From an uncultured Muribaculaceae bacterium (GTDB lineage: Bacteria; Bacillota_I; Bacilli_A; RF39; UBA660): a DNA stretch of 63,126 nt. Position numbers and translations under genes: made by a program. Below are positions 5,327-13,303 of this stretch, in pieces. Numbering within the stretch: the first letter of the stretch is position 1; the number at the start of each line of letters is the position of its first letter. The stretch spans positions 3,759 through 66,884 of the forward strand of contig CAZTRF010000001.1 in the NCBI GenBank assembly GCA_964616495.1. Reading direction: 5' to 3'. The notes beneath the pieces were generated by a model that saw only the letters and a program-made list of their open reading frames with translations, made no database searches and had not been told where the DNA came from.

Positions 5327-5354
5327 TTGACTTTTTAATTAATTATGTTAGTAT
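5327..5354 (+). promoter_or_regulatory. Candidate promoter of the tgt-like operon
   Basis: TTGACT (5327-5332), 16-nt spacer, extended -10 TGtTAGTAT (5346-5354). Confidence 0.45.
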
Positions 5355-5400
5355 AAACACGAGAAAATGTGACTATAAAAGAGAAAGGGGGGAATATATT

Positions 5401-6519
5401 ATGGTAATAAAGGTTCCTCACGGTGATATTCATTTACCAACCTTTTTTCCTGACGGGACAAGAGGTGTTGTAAAATGTGTTGATGCTTGTGATTTAGAAG
5501 AAGCAGGTATTCCAGGTTTAGTAATGAATACATATCATTTGTTATCAAACCCTGGACCATATATTATCAAAAAAAATGGTGGATTACATAAATTTATTAA
5601 TTGGAAGAAACCTATTTTAACAGATAGTGGTGGGTTTCAGGTTTTTTCATTGATAAGCGAAAATTCCAAATATGGAGAAATAAGGGCAAATGAAATAATT
5701 TTTAGGCCTAATATGGATAAAGAAAAAATAATTTTTAGTCCTCAAAAATGTATTCAAAGTCAATTTGCTTATGGATCAGATATTATTATGTGTTTGGATT
5801 ATTGTACTCATCCAAATGATACATATGAAGTAAACCAAAAATCAACTGAAACAACTATAAGATGGGCCAAGAAATGTAAGGAAGAATATCTTAAATTAAT
5901 AGCCCAATCAAAGCAAGAAAAACTTCCTAAATTATTTGCTATAATTCAAGGTGGAGATAGTAAAGAATTACGTAAAATGTGTGCTGATGCCTTAAAGGAG
6001 ATTGGATTTGATGGTTACGGCTATGGCGGATGGCCATTAGATTCGGAAAATAAATTGATTGAAGATATTTTAAAATACACGGCATCTTTAATGCCTGACG
6101 AAACTCCAAAATATGCAATGGGTGTAGGGAAACCAGATGATATAGTAAAATGCTATAAAATGGGATATAATTTATTTGATTGTGTTATTCCAACAAGAGA
6201 AGCACGTCATAATAGGTTATATGTATTTAATGATAGATATGAGTCTTTAGGTGATATTAATTTAGATGATGAAGATTTTTACAAAAATTATTATGTTTTA
6301 GATGATAGTCACCGCTGTGAAACTGCACCTATTTCGAAAATATGTGATTGTTATACTTGTAGAAATTATACTAGAGCATATATTCGCCATTTGTGTTCTA
6401 TAAATGAGTCATTAGGATTTCGTTTAGCAACTATTCACAATTTACGATTTTATAGTCAATTAATGGAGTTACTAAGAAAGGAAGAAGAAAAATGTGCGCC
6501 AAAGCTATTGAAGAAATAA
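5401..6519 (+). CDS. Divergent tRNA-guanine transglycosylase (TGT) family paralog
   Basis: Conserved TGT motifs are present: [38 protein letters not shown], the Zn site [17 protein letters not shown] and IHNLRFY. The selectivity loop reads GYGGWPLDS, whereas the canonical copy at 49813 reads SIGGTSVGE. Confidence 0.8.
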
Positions 6520-7265
6520 TGTTTGAAAAAATTAAATCATCAAAAAAATATGGGCTTTTATGTGAAGATATAATAAGACGGATAATATCAGAAGAAGTTG
6601 TAAAATATAAAAAAATTAAAGATGCAGAGAACAGTGTTAAAACAAAACTTCATATATCATATGGTGCATTCTTTAAAGCTAAATGCCATGAAACAGCCCT
6701 AAGAATGTATGAAGAAGGTAGAAATTTGGAAGATATATTAAGATTACATGTTTCTACTGAAGAGCGTCTTCCTTTTTTAAAAGAATTTTATGATTATATT
6801 TTTACACTAGCAAAAGGTGATAGTATTATAGATTTGGGATGTGGCTTTAATCCTCTAACTTATCATTATCAAGGGGATATTTCAAAGTACTATGCTTATG
6901 ATTTAGATTTTAGAACCAAAAATTTAATAAATGCATATTTTGAAGCTGAAAAAATAGATGGAAAAGCTGAAGTCGTAGATTTATTATCTAAAGTTCCTGA
7001 TGAAAAGGCAGATATAACGTATTTATTTAAACTTCTTCCTCTTTTAGAAGCTCAAAAAAAAGGCCGTGCTGTTGATATACTAAATGCATTACAAACAAAA
7101 TATTGTATAATTACTTATCCCTTAAAATCAATCTCTGGTAAAGAAAAAAATATGGGTGATAGTTATTCAAAACAATTTGAATCAATTATTGCTAGGACTG
7201 ATTTAGAAGTTATTGGAGAAAATAAAATTGAAAACGAATTAATTTATGTAACAAAAAGAAAGTAA
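6519..7265 (+). CDS. 16S rRNA (guanine1405-N7)-methyltransferase family protein (ArmA/Rmt/FmrO-like)
   Basis: Blocks match my recollection of ArmA: SSKKYG, TKLH.SYGAF, LRLHVSTEERL, FYDYIF, IIDLGCGFNPLTY (SAM site), YYAYDLD, LFKLLPLLE, ITYPLKSISGKEKNMG and NELIYVT. ATG 6519 overlaps the upstream stop (TAATG). Confidence 0.75.
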   Translation: MFEKIKSSKKYGLLCEDIIRRIISEEVVKYKKIKDAENSVKTKLHISYGAFFKAKCHETALRMYEEGRNLEDILRLHVSTEERLPFLKEFYDYIFTLAKGDSIIDLGCGFNPLTYHYQGDISKYYAYDLDFRTKNLINAYFEAEKIDGKAEVVDLLSKVPDEKADITYLFKLLPLLEAQKKGRAVDILNALQTKYCIITYPLKSISGKEKNMGDSYSKQFESIIARTDLEVIGENKIENELIYVTKRK

Positions 7266-7268
7266 TTG

Positions 7269-11151: not shown

Positions 11152-11152
11152 T

Positions 11153-12469
11153 ATGATTAAAGAAGATTTTAATTTTCATACTCACACGTTTAGATGTGGT
11201 CATGCTTTCGGAAAAGAAGAAGAATATATAAAAGCGGCTATAGATAAAAATATAAGAGTGTTAGGATTTTCAGATCATATGCCATATTATCCATTATTTG
11301 TTAATGATATAGAGCAAAGAATGACATATTTTGATATTCCGGATTATTACTATACTATTAAAAATTTAAAAAAGAAATACTATGAAGATATTACAATATT
11401 ATTTGGTTTTGAAGGAGAATATGATGAATTACAATTAAAGCATTTAATAACATTGGGTAATATAAGCGATTTTATGATTTTGGGTCAGCACTATGTTAGA
11501 GGGGAAAACCCAAATAATAATTATCTATATCCTCAAAAATATGCGGATATTATAATACGGGGAATAAAAAGTGGAATATTTGATATTTTAGGTCATCCAG
11601 ATTATTTTTTGCGTTTTAGAGATTCGATATCTTTTGATACTCTATCGAGCACCAATAAATCGTATTTTGGCTCTAAAAAAAGGTATTTAGAAGCATATAA
11701 TGAAGAAACTAATAAAGCAATTAGAAGAATATTAGAAGTAGCTCAAGAAACAAAAATTCCCATCGAACTTAATTATGGCGCAATATATGACGATGAAAGA
11801 CAAAGCGACGGTTATTGTTACTATCCTCATCCATTCTTTTGGGATATAGCTAAAAATTATAAAATTACCGTTTTTCCAGCAATTGATGCTCATAGTCCAG
11901 ATCAAATTTCTTCATTTTCAATAGAATTTTTTGAAAAAGAATTAAATACCAAACTAACAGAATTATTAACTACATCAGAAGGTTTATCTTTTCAATATTC
12001 ATCTGCATTTTTAGCAAAAACGCAAAAATATTTTCCAGGCATTTATAATGCTGAAACTGTTTATATTATTAATTTAGTAGAAAAAAATAAAGATAAACTT
12101 TCTTTTTCAAATTGGAAAAGGGCCTTAATTACAATTCTACAAAAAGTTTTGTTAGATGAGTATGAAAAATTACAAACCTCAAAAAATAGAATTAAGTTTT
12201 ATTTTTCTAATCAAGCAATTGATTGGAGTACCTATCAACTATATACACCCAAAAAAGCAGAAGAATTAATAAATAGACAAATAGAAGTAGAAGAAAATGC
12301 TTTAGTAGAATTAAATGAATTAATTAATATATGTATTAATATATTAAAATCTACGCCAGAAATAAAAACCAATTCCCTTGAAGAATCATTAAAAATATTT
12401 TATACTCAAATTGATCGTATGTACAATAATTATGGTCGATTAAAACAAATGCTTGTGAAAGGAATTTAA
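11153..12469 (+). CDS. PHP-domain phosphoesterase (HisJ-like histidinol-phosphatase family) with a roughly 170-aa C-terminal helical extension
   Basis: N-terminal FNFHTHTFRCGHA (PHP motif I), then GFSDHMPY, GHPDY and IDAHSP metal-ligand motifs. The C-terminal third is charged and helical and not part of canonical PHP. Confidence 0.6.
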   Translation: MIKEDFNFHTHTFRCGHAFGKEEEYIKAAIDKNIRVLGFSDHMPYYPLFVNDIEQRMTYFDIPDYYYTIKNLKKKYYEDITILFGFEGEYDELQLKHLITLGNISDFMILGQHYVRGENPNNNYLYPQKYADIIIRGIKSGIFDILGHPDYFLRFRDSISFDTLSSTNKSYFGSKKRYLEAYNEETNKAIRRILEVAQETKIPIELNYGAIYDDERQSDGYCYYPHPFFWDIAKNYKITVFPAIDAHSPDQISSFSIEFFEKELNTKLTELLTTSEGLSFQYSSAFLAKTQKYFPGIYNAETVYIINLVEKNKDKLSFSNWKRALITILQKVLLDEYEKLQTSKNRIKFYFSNQAIDWSTYQLYTPKKAEELINRQIEVEENALVELNELINICINILKSTPEIKTNSLEESLKIFYTQIDRMYNNYGRLKQMLVKGI

Positions 12470-12470
12470 T

Positions 12471-13289
12471 ATGAAAATAGATAAATATCTAAAATATTAT
12501 GATATTAAATATTTAGGGGAAGGATTTCGTAGTAAATCTTATATTATTGATAATAAATATATATTTTTAGAGGGTAATAATGATAAATCTTACAAAACTT
12601 ACAAGAAAGATTATAAAGTATTGAACTTTCTTAAAGATAAAATTAAAACAGTTTTAATACCTAATAATGTTATTTTAGTAAAAAAAGATAACGATAATCC
12701 TACTGGGGGTTTAATATATAAAATTATTAATGATCAGGTTTTTAATTATGATAAATTAAAAACCTATAATTTAGATAATATAGCTTTTGAAATTAGTGTA
12801 TTTTTAAATGAATTACATAGTATCAAAATAGCCTATAATTATGAAAAAATAATTACTAAAGACTTAAAAAATATAAAATCTAATATTAACAAAATAAAGA
12901 AATTTATATCTAAAAAATACTTTGAAAATTTAGATAGCTTTTATAAAGAGTATGAAAATTTTACTAAACATAATAAAAAATTATATTTAGTTCATGGTGA
13001 TTTATGGTATGAAAATTATATTATCTCTAAAGACGGAAATCATCTAAAAGGAATTATTGATTTTGAAAATTGTAAATATTTTTATAAAGAAGATGATTTA
13101 GTTCCTATGACCTATTTAGGAAATAAATTTTTAGACAAAGTTATACTTAATTATAAATACAAAGTTTTAAAAGAAAATATCAAAATTTTTAAAATAAGAA
13201 GAGAAGTAATTAGTTTTAATTACTTATTAAAATATTTTCCAGAAGAAAAAGAAGATCAACTAAAGAAAATAATTGATTCACTAAAATAG
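12471..13289 (+). CDS. APH-fold (aminoglycoside/small-molecule) phosphotransferase family kinase
   Basis: Catalytic loop HGDLWYENYII (HxDxxxxN) and IIDFENC (DFE/DFG-like Mg site). At about 270 aa it has the size of APH/choline-kinase-like enzymes. Confidence 0.6.
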   Translation: MKIDKYLKYYDIKYLGEGFRSKSYIIDNKYIFLEGNNDKSYKTYKKDYKVLNFLKDKIKTVLIPNNVILVKKDNDNPTGGLIYKIINDQVFNYDKLKTYNLDNIAFEISVFLNELHSIKIAYNYEKIITKDLKNIKSNINKIKKFISKKYFENLDSFYKEYENFTKHNKKLYLVHGDLWYENYIISKDGNHLKGIIDFENCKYFYKEDDLVPMTYLGNKFLDKVILNYKYKVLKENIKIFKIRREVISFNYLLKYFPEEKEDQLKKIIDSLK

Positions 13290-13303
13290 TTTTAGTGAAT
13301 CAA
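13273..13303 (+). terminator. Perfect 14-bp hairpin at the operon end (terminator-like, no clear U tract)
   Basis: TTGATTCACTAAAA (13273-13286), loop TAG (the stop codon), TTTTAGTGAATCAA (13290-13303). Confidence 0.45.

Follow-up and report, generated by a model that had tools for sequence, protein, structure and literature searches.

An operon of eight plus-strand open reading frames (ORF1 to ORF8, 5401-13289) was analysed in a 63,126-nucleotide stretch of DNA, referred to below as the window, from contig CAZTRF010000001.1 (assembly GCA_964616495.1) of an uncultured bacterium. The first two genes encode a divergent paralog of tRNA-guanine transglycosylase (TGT), which we designate TGT2, and a homolog of the Rmt-family 16S rRNA (guanine1405-N7) methyltransferases. 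We found that TGT2 and Rmt genes constitute a conserved, co-inherited cassette, in which several acquired Rmt genes have their native context. With moderate confidence we interpret it as an RNA-modification cassette acting on the decoding centre of the ribosome, to which accessory genes have been added locally. A combined RNA-modification module had been one of the options in the initial annotation of the operon, and it is the option that fits the evidence best.

Conservation of the TGT2-Rmt gene pair

A TGT gene lies directly upstream even of Rmt homologs that are 36-41% identical to ORF2. When species-representative genomes were scanned with an Rmt alignment, 31 loci were obtained, 23 of them bacterial. 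TGT2 was encoded upstream of Rmt in 18 of these 23 loci, directly in 16 and at a distance of 1-4 kb in L021 and L026. No TGT partner was found in the archaeal FmrO loci of the same scan. Clustering of all flanking ORFs disclosed no recurrent partners besides TGT and a TP_methylase (see below). ORF clusters 2, 4, 5, 6 and 14 were discarded, being made up of ORFs that lie within the genes of TGT, Rmt and RsmI in antisense or in an alternative frame. A candidate five-gene system including the 959- and 966-amino acid (aa) proteins of L004 and L007 was also rejected, because there is no homology between these two proteins.

The reverse search, a metagenome scan seeded with a TGT segment specific for the paralog, gave at least 589 matches, of which the best 80 were kept. 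Among these 80, the sequence GG[WF]P was present in all 73 loci whose contig included the base pocket region. An Rmt gene followed TGT2 immediately in 40 of the 55 loci having at least 900 nt of downstream sequence, mostly with a gap between -15 and +50 nt. A mirror-tree comparison of TGT and Rmt based on 44 non-redundant pairs yielded a Mantel r of 0.87, a value reached in none of 2000 permutations (0/2000), with TGT evolving more slowly than Rmt (mean distances 0.40 vs 0.63). The pair was found across Firmicutes, in a Treponema metagenome-assembled genome, in high-GC lineages and on plasmids of Enterobacterales. The window has the same layout: the gene with the TGT2 signature is on the same strand as, and immediately 5' of, the Rmt gene, and the two genes overlap at a TAATG sequence.

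The functional link between the TGT paralog and the methyltransferase, for which the initial annotation had proposed a comparison of gene neighbourhoods, is far stronger than could be known there, as the homologs of ORF1 and ORF2 proved to be co-conserved in most of the loci of both scans. The wider idea that all eight genes form one co-conserved pathway had to be abandoned: co-conservation is confined to ORF1-ORF2, and the kinase and the long-form PHP protein (ORF8 and ORF7, see below) have their relatives in unrelated gene contexts.

Sequence features of TGT2

ORF1 (5401-6519, + strand, 372 aa) matches PF01702 with 345.7 bits and TIGR00430 with 344.7 bits, the latter being above the equivalog cut-off of 306.75. 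The window also contains the housekeeping queA gene (43657-45330, + strand; NF001140, 468 bits) and a canonical tgt gene (49804-50931, + strand; TIGR00430, 510.8 bits; PTRVARHG motif), 38-44 kb away from ORF1. Since both genes are present and ORF1 is 39% identical to the product of this tgt, ORF1 is a genuine paralog, as had been proposed. The QueA protein (557 aa) is itself unusual in carrying, after its domain in residues 10-346, a C-terminal extension of ~210 aa without family match.

Among themselves, TGT2 proteins share 50-92% identity, as compared with 35-40% to the canonical copy. ORF1 falls in the same range of 50-92% when compared with Rmt-adjacent TGTs from elsewhere, including those beside RmtB2, RmtD1, RmtE2 and RmtG. 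TGT2 branches within bacterial Tgt. Neither queA nor other queuosine genes were found beside TGT2 in ~100 loci. Assignment of ORF1 to DpdA was considered and rejected (NF041059, 18.8 bits vs a cut-off of 200). Judged by these similarities, TGT2 is a distinct TGT subfamily that coexists with the canonical Tgt.

All Rmt-linked TGTs keep the catalytic Asp (motifs TDSGGFQ and LFDCV), the Asp, Gln and Gly-Gly of guanine recognition, and the zinc site. The residues checked were, in Zymomonas mobilis numbering, Asp102, Asp280, Asp156, Gln203, Gly230 and the CxCxxC...H zinc site; the corresponding sequences in ORF1 are TDSGGFQ, LDYC, IQGG, GG, LFDCV and CDCYTC...H. Several other segments differ from those of the canonical enzymes. 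Where these have GGL(A/S)(V/I)GE (e.g. GGLAVGE), the Rmt-linked TGTs have G[FY]GG[WF]P[LV]D, and the pocket of ORF1 reads GGWPLDS. The somewhat wider pattern GG[WF]P[LVAMIT]x describes all 73 of the 73 metagenome relatives with this region on the contig, as well as the four plasmid copies discussed below. In TGT2 a Pro occupies the residue position of the Leu231/Ala232 peptide switch, and Glu235 is lost. Rmt-linked TGTs also have DYCTHP instead of the canonical DEC(T/A) and PTREARH[NQ]RLY instead of PTRxARNG. All of them carry two inserts, a conserved one of four residues (FSL[IL][RS]EN) and an acidic/aromatic one of 12-18 residues ahead of the zinc site.

The location of these inserts can be related to the cryo-EM structure (2026) of tRNA-bound TGT from E. 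coli, in which the loop L98-I104 stacks on the flipped A37 (PMC13416341). In the same enzyme the tRNA stem is bound by K285, K292 and R320, and no covalent intermediate is formed with K285D or K292D (PMC13416341). The first TGT2 insert falls in the equivalent of the A37-stacking loop, the second sits exactly between the equivalents of K285 and K292, and R320 is not retained in TGT2, with the caveat that these contacts vary among canonical Tgts too. The alignments indicate that TGT2 is an enzyme whose catalytic chemistry is retained and in which both the base pocket near position 7 and the RNA-contact surfaces are changed. This combination suggests that TGT2 is active but differs from the housekeeping Tgt of the queuosine pathway in the base it uses, in its RNA substrate, or in both.

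The partner methyltransferase

ORF2 (6492-7265, + strand) probably starts at the ATG at 6519, which overlaps the stop codon of TGT2. It scores 119 bits with PF07091 (cut-off 27) and 248.0 bits with NF000466, slightly below the cut-off of 250. Full-length alignments were obtained to RmtB (PDB 3frh/3b89) and to a chain of PDB entry 6pi9, and the N-terminal domain for docking on the 30S subunit is present. The residues K20, Y21, R50, H54, Y60, K204, K236, R241 and M245 were identified as critical in a study of RmtC and the 30S subunit (PMC10288597). With the RmtC numbering mapped by offset from the RmtB and RmtC alignments, ORF2 has K19-Y20, K50, H54, F60, K180, K212, K217 and M221 at the aligned positions, and most of the critical positions are invariant over 15 homologs including RmtE. 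Retention of these residues, together with the homology, points to G1405 in helix 44 of the 30S subunit as the target of ORF2, which is predicted to produce N7-methylguanosine at this position (m7G1405). The initial assignment to the m7G1405-type methyltransferases is in agreement with these results. Within the family ORF2 represents an isolated lineage, sharing only 33-41% identity with the known and metagenomic Rmts. The closest of 5.8 billion proteins are ~41% identical, and identity to RmtE is 37%.

RsmI and RsmH as recurrent partners

The TP_methylase gene mentioned above is located upstream of TGT in 11 analysed loci, nine from the genome scan plus L004 and L007. Its product passes the equivalog model of RsmI, the 16S C1402 2'-O-methyltransferase, with 215-229 bits against a cut-off of 167.9. 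RsmI was encoded before TGT or after Rmt in 24 of the 55 metagenome loci, which shows that it is an optional partner. In six loci the genes were arranged in RsmH-TGT2-Rmt-RsmI arrays. Two of these arrays (L085 and L097) follow valS and a folC-like gene; as their rsmH lacks the mraZ/ftsL context, the possibility that it is the housekeeping copy of the dcw cluster was dismissed. RsmI and RsmH are the enzymes that make m4Cm1402, three nucleotides from G1405. No RsmI homolog is encoded anywhere in the window, where the neighbours of the pair are an ABC-F gene upstream and an ABC ATPase gene downstream.

In L097 a nucleoside phosphorylase gene (PNP_UDP_1, 9937-10710) was seen ~1.3 kb downstream of the RsmH-TGT2-Rmt-RsmI array. 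It encodes the only free-base-releasing enzyme noticed near any cassette.

Possible targets of TGT2

The three recurrent partners all modify position 1402 or 1405 of helix 44, and this makes the decoding centre the likeliest site of action for TGT2. In the model that we favour, the ORF1-ORF2 core is an old two-gene cassette in which a neofunctionalized TGT2 would be translationally coupled to the Rmt-type methyltransferase. The methyltransferase would dock on the assembled 30S subunit, flip G1405 out of helix 44 and methylate its N7, as suggested by homology and the conserved residues. TGT2 would have its target in the same region of the 16S rRNA as the three partners, a location that is suggested by gene association only.

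If this line of thought is carried further, TGT2 could be an rRNA transglycosylase, the first of its kind, acting on the 30S decoding centre with its partner enzymes. We regard this as a speculative and rather unlikely extension. In its sharpest version Rmt would methylate G1405, and TGT2 would use the cationic, labile m7G as the leaving base and swap it for another base, possibly an imported one. The changes in the predicted TGT2 pocket would fit such a reaction. The Pro at the peptide-switch position presumably removes the NH that normally faces N7 in Z. mobilis TGT structures; the gain of Trp/Phe and Tyr is reminiscent of m7G-recognizing cap-binding pockets. If this were true, the native role of Rmt would be to prime or accompany rRNA hypermodification, and aminoglycoside resistance would be a by-product that was mobilized later.

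Several observations weigh against the model that we favour. We know of no report of a base-exchange modification in rRNA. TGT2 scores above the curated cut-off for canonical Tgt and keeps the PTR..R arginines, which leaves room for a substrate of the tRNA G34 type. The GG[WF]P pocket also occurs in a sister clade (LDDC..., PTRDARHKRL) that never has an Rmt neighbour; the pocket change accordingly predates the linkage or is independent of it. No conserved neighbours at all were found for this Rmt-less clade, hence it offers no functional hint. Several Defluviitaleaceae from termite gut carry TGT2 and Rmt apart from each other. The mirror-tree correlation is no proof of interaction, because co-inherited genes give such a correlation anyway. 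Finally, Rmt enzymes work without TGT2, as is the case for rmtE with its truncated tgt, for armA and for rmtC, showing that the methyltransferase is independent of its partner.

Some of these points are shared by the main rival explanation, according to which TGT2 is a second tRNA-guanine(34) transglycosylase with another base preference, e.g. for a salvaged 7-deazaguanine other than preQ1. The importer, phosphatase and kinase of the operon would supply or process the base, and Rmt, RsmI and RsmH would be neighbours only by co-regulation. The Tgt-like score, the retained catalytic residues and arginines, and the sister clade without Rmt are all compatible with this proposal, as are the recurrence of importers beside the pair and the loose recurrence of genes for phosphotransfer and phosphatase functions. 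We nevertheless consider it unlikely, albeit the most serious competitor. The genome already has a canonical Tgt and QueA to serve G34, and the ~100 loci contain no queuosine-gene neighbour, whereas three different 16S helix-44 enzymes adjoin TGT2. Moreover, TGT2 has a remodelled tRNA-contact loop and stem-binding region, the CUT1 binding proteins are of the oligosaccharide type and not known as binders of bases or nucleosides, and no nucleosidase is present.

Relation to acquired rmt genes

Plasmid contexts of acquired rmt genes were collected by tblastn against plasmids and from annotated regions. The gene order is IS91, dTgt (truncated), RmtE2 on pMY458-rmtE; RsmH, Tgt, RmtG, methyltransferase fragment, ISVsa3 on pKP13f; CorA, Tgt, metallophosphoesterase, RmtB2 on p12100-NDM; and Tgt, RmtD1 in 6411TF. 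The TGT2 signature was present in all four of the Tgts encoded beside RmtB2, RmtD1, RmtE2 and RmtG. The metallophosphoesterase, CorA and an antiporter of the rmtB2 context were not found in any of the environmental loci and were rejected as recurrent partners.

Metagenome locus L132 has a TGT2 with 92% identity to the truncated Tgt next to rmtE2 and an Rmt with 77% identity to RmtE. The 105-aa "hypothetical" protein encoded after rmtE2 corresponds to the N-terminus (residues 1 to ~100) of a CUT1 solute-binding protein (SBP) and is 76% identical to that of L132. These matches of the remnants in the dTGT2-rmtE2-dSBP module (positions 6139-7962 of L133, pMY458-rmtE, NZ_LC511996.1) indicate that rmtE was excised from a locus of the RsmI-TGT2-Rmt-SBP-permease type. 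The likeness is at the protein level only (76-92%), and no match between the rmtE2 region and L132 was found at the DNA level. L132, the locus closest to RmtE, also contains a 96-aa FmrO-like fragment upstream of RsmI (245-535), suggestive of a partial duplication or an older rearrangement.

Closer matches were obtained for two other plasmid-borne genes. L077 (JABLTK010099770.1) and the rmtG region of pKP13f share 95% DNA identity over 3.6 kb; the fragment following rmtG on the plasmid is the N-terminus of RsmI, and L077 has the complete RsmI. L079 (OLPR01001234.1, a 21-kb contig) has 96.6% DNA identity over 1.6 kb to the rmtD1 region, and here too RsmI is located downstream. L077 and L079 are candidate contigs from the donor lineage. 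The cassette is in this way the native context of several acquired Rmt genes, and in the overall explanation that we hold to be probable rmtB2, rmtD, rmtE and rmtG are escaped copies of this type of cassette.

A putative tRNA ribosyltransferase was noted upstream of rmtG earlier (PMC3904158), and another paper, referring to Passarelli-Araujo 2019, places rmtG in an operon with rsmH, tgt and "rsmL" (PMC9311965). The initial annotation had called the operon not a known pathway. This is right insofar as no function had been assigned, but the tgt-rmt and rsmH-tgt-rmtG-rsmI arrangements were on record as context in these two papers. A functional study of an rmt-linked tgt was not found in the full-text search, in which resistance papers gave tgt as context only, and tgt is not mentioned in a dedicated RmtE genomics paper.

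Signs of mobility were observed outside the plasmids as well. In gut metagenomes the RsmI-TGT2-Rmt block lies beside helix-turn-helix genes and a MobL relaxase gene (L007/L008, ~8.4-11.5 kb) and beside a transposase fragment (L004, 7502-7789), and the cassette appears to be mobile among Firmicutes too.

Organization of the operon

The eight ORFs are packed by overlapping or abutting stop and start codons, and all ORFs and junctions of the initial annotation were recovered in the sequence. ORF1 and ORF2 are joined by TAATG (6517-6521), and ORF3 and ORF4 by ATGA (8270-8273). The TAA of ORF2 (7263-7265) is followed by the TTG at 7266 and the ATG at 7269, either of which could start ORF3. ORF4 and ORF5 overlap at 9456-9493, and ORF5 and ORF6 at 10351-10367. 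The stop codon of ORF6 (TAA, 11149-11151) precedes the ATG that begins at 11153, and that of ORF7 (TAA, 12467-12469) the ATG that begins at 12471. Alternative starts exist for ORF2 (6492/6519), ORF3 (7266/7269), ORF5 (9456/9474) and ORF7 (11141/11153).

No plus-strand terminator-like site was found within 5401-13289. Upstream of ORF1 there is a promoter-like site at 5327-5354 (+ strand; TTGACT, 16-nt spacer with extended TG, TAGTAT), which had been taken as the candidate promoter. The match itself is there, but the AT-rich window contains 96 promoter-like matches as compared with 108.5 expected from shuffled sequences. In view of this lack of enrichment the site is plausible and statistically undistinguished.

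The operon is preceded by the L21 leader, the genes of L21, Prp and L27 and, directly upstream of ORF1, the gene of a ribosomal-protection-like ABC-F ATPase (3677-5323, + strand; NF000355, 428 bits, cut-off 380). No terminator was found between these genes and ORF1, and read-through from the ribosomal-protein operon is possible. The L21 leader (RF00559, 2658-2727) is the sole Rfam match in the whole window. Control of the operon by a riboswitch or leader was considered and dropped, as the region 5200-5500 gave no Rfam match even at E <= 10. The block that enters the operon without a terminator (2658-5323) has a parallel in L011, where RsmI-TGT2-Rmt is also paired with L21-Prp-L27.

At the distal end of the operon there is a hairpin with a perfect 18-bp stem (13269-13307, + strand; dG -19.2 kcal/mol), whose 3-nt loop is the stop codon of ORF8. 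The hairpin had been noticed before, with the stem given as 14 bp (13273-13303), an extent that is too short. Lacking a plus-strand U-tract, it does not qualify as a canonical intrinsic terminator, the first of which past the operon is at 13483-13512.

The GC content of the window is ~26% throughout, and the eight operon genes match the rest of the window, housekeeping genes included, in GC and in GC at third codon positions (GC3). This match and the L21-L27 neighbourhood common to the window and its relative L011 indicate that the cassette is native to the host genome. As part of the same overall explanation, which we think probable, the eight ORFs would form one tightly packed transcription unit composed of three parts: the ORF1-ORF2 core, the importer (ORF3-ORF6), and the PHP phosphatase and APH(2'')-like kinase (ORF7-ORF8), the last two being presumably lineage-specific additions.

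It could also be that eight unrelated co-directional genes of a small, gene-dense genome are merely packed compactly. In compact low-GC genomes stop codons commonly overlap with start codons, and ORF3-ORF8 are not co-conserved with ORF1-ORF2. For ORF1-ORF2, however, this explanation is untenable, since the pair is widely conserved and translationally coupled and the divergence of the two genes is correlated; for the operon as a whole it appears highly improbable.

Importer, phosphoesterase and kinase genes

The families to which the operon genes had been assigned (TGT, FmrO/Rmt, CUT1-type ABC importer, PHP domain and APH-fold kinase) were all upheld. ORF3-ORF6, all on the + strand, encode a complete CUT1 set: a MalK/UgpC-type ATPase (7266-8273; PF00005; NF008653, 310 bits), an SBP_bac_1/8 solute-binding protein with an N-terminal membrane anchor (8270-9493; PF13416, PF01547), and two BPD_transp_1-type permeases, the first GlcT/UgpA-like (9456-10367; PF00528) and the second UgpE/GlcU-like by NCBIfam and without a Pfam match (10351-11151). 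The solved structures nearest to ORF4 are those of oligosaccharide binders, namely Lmo0181, Lin1841, maltose/trehalose binding proteins and GacH.

An importer is encoded beside the pair in the window, L004 and L132 only, with remnants in L007 (an 89-aa importer stub, E = 1e-11) and on the rmtE plasmids. In L132 and L004 it follows the TGT2-Rmt pair, and the binding proteins of these two loci are homologous to each other (33%, E ~1e-83); the binding protein of the window is only distantly related to them. A meaningful association would imply at least two recruitments of the importer. However, CUT1 systems abound in Firmicutes to such a degree that two events among dozens of contexts are weak evidence. 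Importer and pair recur together in the RmtE lineage too seldom for a link, and with it the salvage or self-protection logic of the initial annotation, to be established. In our model the importer would be an occasional accessory, which may import a compound used by TGT2 or by the downstream enzymes.

ORF7 (11141-12469, + strand; likely start ATG 11153) encodes a PHP-domain phosphoesterase (PF02811, 60 bits). Its N-terminal ~257 aa are HisJ-like and are followed by a C-terminal extension of ~185 aa without a family. With 72.1 bits it remains below the cut-off (90.2) of the HisJ-family histidinol phosphatases (TIGR01856), and its nearest PDB entry is the histidinol phosphatase 2yxo. ORF8 (12471-13289, + strand) matches PF01636 and PF03881, both weakly. 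Its HGDxxxxN and DFE motifs identify it as an APH-fold small-molecule kinase, distantly APH(2'')-like: the nearest PDB entry is APH(2'')-IIIa (3tdv, 41 bits). It fails the APH families, the best being NF000044 with 35.8 bits against a cut-off of 625.

Kinase relatives (38-62% identity) and relatives of the long PHP form are encoded in unrelated gene contexts; six neighbourhoods were compared, and neither protein could be kept as a conserved partner. The initial annotation had drawn attention to two resistance-type folds, the methyltransferase and the kinase, bracketing an importer. As the relatives occur in unrelated contexts, this picture is specific to the present lineage. Genes for phosphotransfer or phosphatase functions recur near the pair only loosely (an NDK-domain protein in L004, the metallophosphoesterase of the rmtB2 context, PHP and kinase in the window).

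In a further rival explanation the operon would be an island for self-protection against, or uptake of, aminoglycoside-type compounds. The CUT1 system would import an aminoglycoside-like pseudo-oligosaccharide, the kinase and the PHP protein would modify it, Rmt and perhaps the ABC-F protein would protect the ribosome, and TGT2 would be a passenger. The m7G1405 modification blocks 4,6-disubstituted deoxystreptamine aminoglycosides, the nearest structures of the kinase are APH(2'') gentamicin kinases, and the binding protein shows weak similarity to GacH, which binds acarbose/maltose. Directly upstream there is the gene of a ribosomal-protection-like ABC-F protein, and an importer follows Rmt in the RmtE lineage too. 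Against this, the kinase is far below every APH cut-off and its relatives are scattered, and PHP, kinase and ABC-F are conserved with Rmt nowhere else. The native composition, the setting at the L21-L27 operon and the absence of biosynthetic genes nearby are also difficult to reconcile with such an island. The island would account for the kinase, the importer and ABC-F, but it leaves the most conserved feature, the association of TGT2 with RsmI/RsmH, unexplained, and we consider it improbable.

Other loci in the window

A small unit (13342-13512) is situated between the operon and the next gene, a RelA/SpoT-like one. It consists of a promoter-like site (13342-13370; TTGACA, 17 nt, TAATAT), a 27-aa ORF (13401-13484; MNRLMCTFKTYKMICKDICLNIYDEIK) and the strong canonical terminator already mentioned (13483-13512), which has a 13-bp stem and a T-tract. 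The unit could represent a leader peptide or an attenuator.

The window contains two RelA/SpoT homologs (13533-14957 and 54023-56170). One is a full-length Rel of 715 aa. The other, immediately downstream of the operon, is a truncated paralog of 474 aa, which covers positions 1-448 of the 687 of the model and is without the C-terminal regulatory region.

The segment 47147-49759, flanked by the canonical tgt and the gene of a RimK-like ligase, stands out by a GC content of 0.40 vs a background of 0.27. It contains an 870-aa ORF with Listeria-Bacteroides repeats and an ALK/LTK-type glycine-rich domain, which by its domains probably encodes a surface protein.

Significance and comparison with known systems

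Pan-aminoglycoside resistance caused by m7G1405 methyltransferases is a clinical problem, and what is at stake here is the origin of the Rmt genes and their native function. The natural setting of Rmt is a conserved cassette with a specialized TGT paralog, often with the C1402 methyltransferases RsmI and/or RsmH, that is widespread in uncultured anaerobes. Excision of rmtE from a locus of the L132 type and the 95-97% DNA matches to the rmtG and rmtD regions provide concrete leads to donor lineages. A transglycosylase with a remodelled pocket beside three helix 44 enzymes would mean new biochemistry, whether it makes a new tRNA base, performs the first base exchange in rRNA or introduces a modification by which the cost of m7G1405 is compensated. 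The role of TGT2 could thereby change how the fitness cost and the spread of rmt resistance genes are understood. The adjacency of tgt and rmt on plasmids was already known. What appears to be new is the recognition of this tgt as a distinct subfamily coexisting with canonical Tgt, its breadth in uncultured anaerobes, the four-gene arrays with RsmH and RsmI, the reconstruction of the rmtE excision and the eight-gene chromosomal variant.

Among known systems, the acarbose gac/acb "carbophore" resembles the window in having a CUT1 binding-protein importer beside a small-molecule kinase, and there is weak similarity to GacH. The acarbose genes are absent from the window, and the resemblance is in logic only. 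Sgm, GrmA, FmrO and KgmB, the methyltransferases of producer self-resistance, belong to the same FmrO family as ORF2 and have the same predicted target. The m7G1405 methyltransferase genes of producers lie in biosynthetic clusters, whereas the window has no biosynthetic genes.

DpdA is, like TGT2, a paralog in the TGT superfamily, and its new substrate was first predicted from the gene neighbourhood (PMC5699537). DpdA inserts preQ0 into DNA, and the partners of TGT2 are rRNA methyltransferases, not DNA-metabolism genes. In the 7-deazaguanine literature searched, DpdA was the sole tgt paralog under discussion. The Tgt of the queuosine pathway shares with TGT2 the fold, the length, the catalytic Asp, guanine recognition and the zinc site, at 39-45% identity. 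It differs from TGT2 by having DEC in place of DYC, and TGT2 has in addition the GG[WF]P[LV]D pocket, two inserts and no link to queA.

The closest parallels are the contexts of rmtG, rmtD, rmtB2 and rmtE, in which, as in the window, a gene with the TGT2 signature is located upstream of Rmt. In contrast to the plasmid-borne contexts, the pair of the window is chromosomal, has native composition, belongs to a low-GC spore-forming Firmicute and lies by ribosomal-protein genes. Neither RsmI nor RsmH is encoded beside it, and it is followed by the importer, the PHP phosphatase and the kinase.

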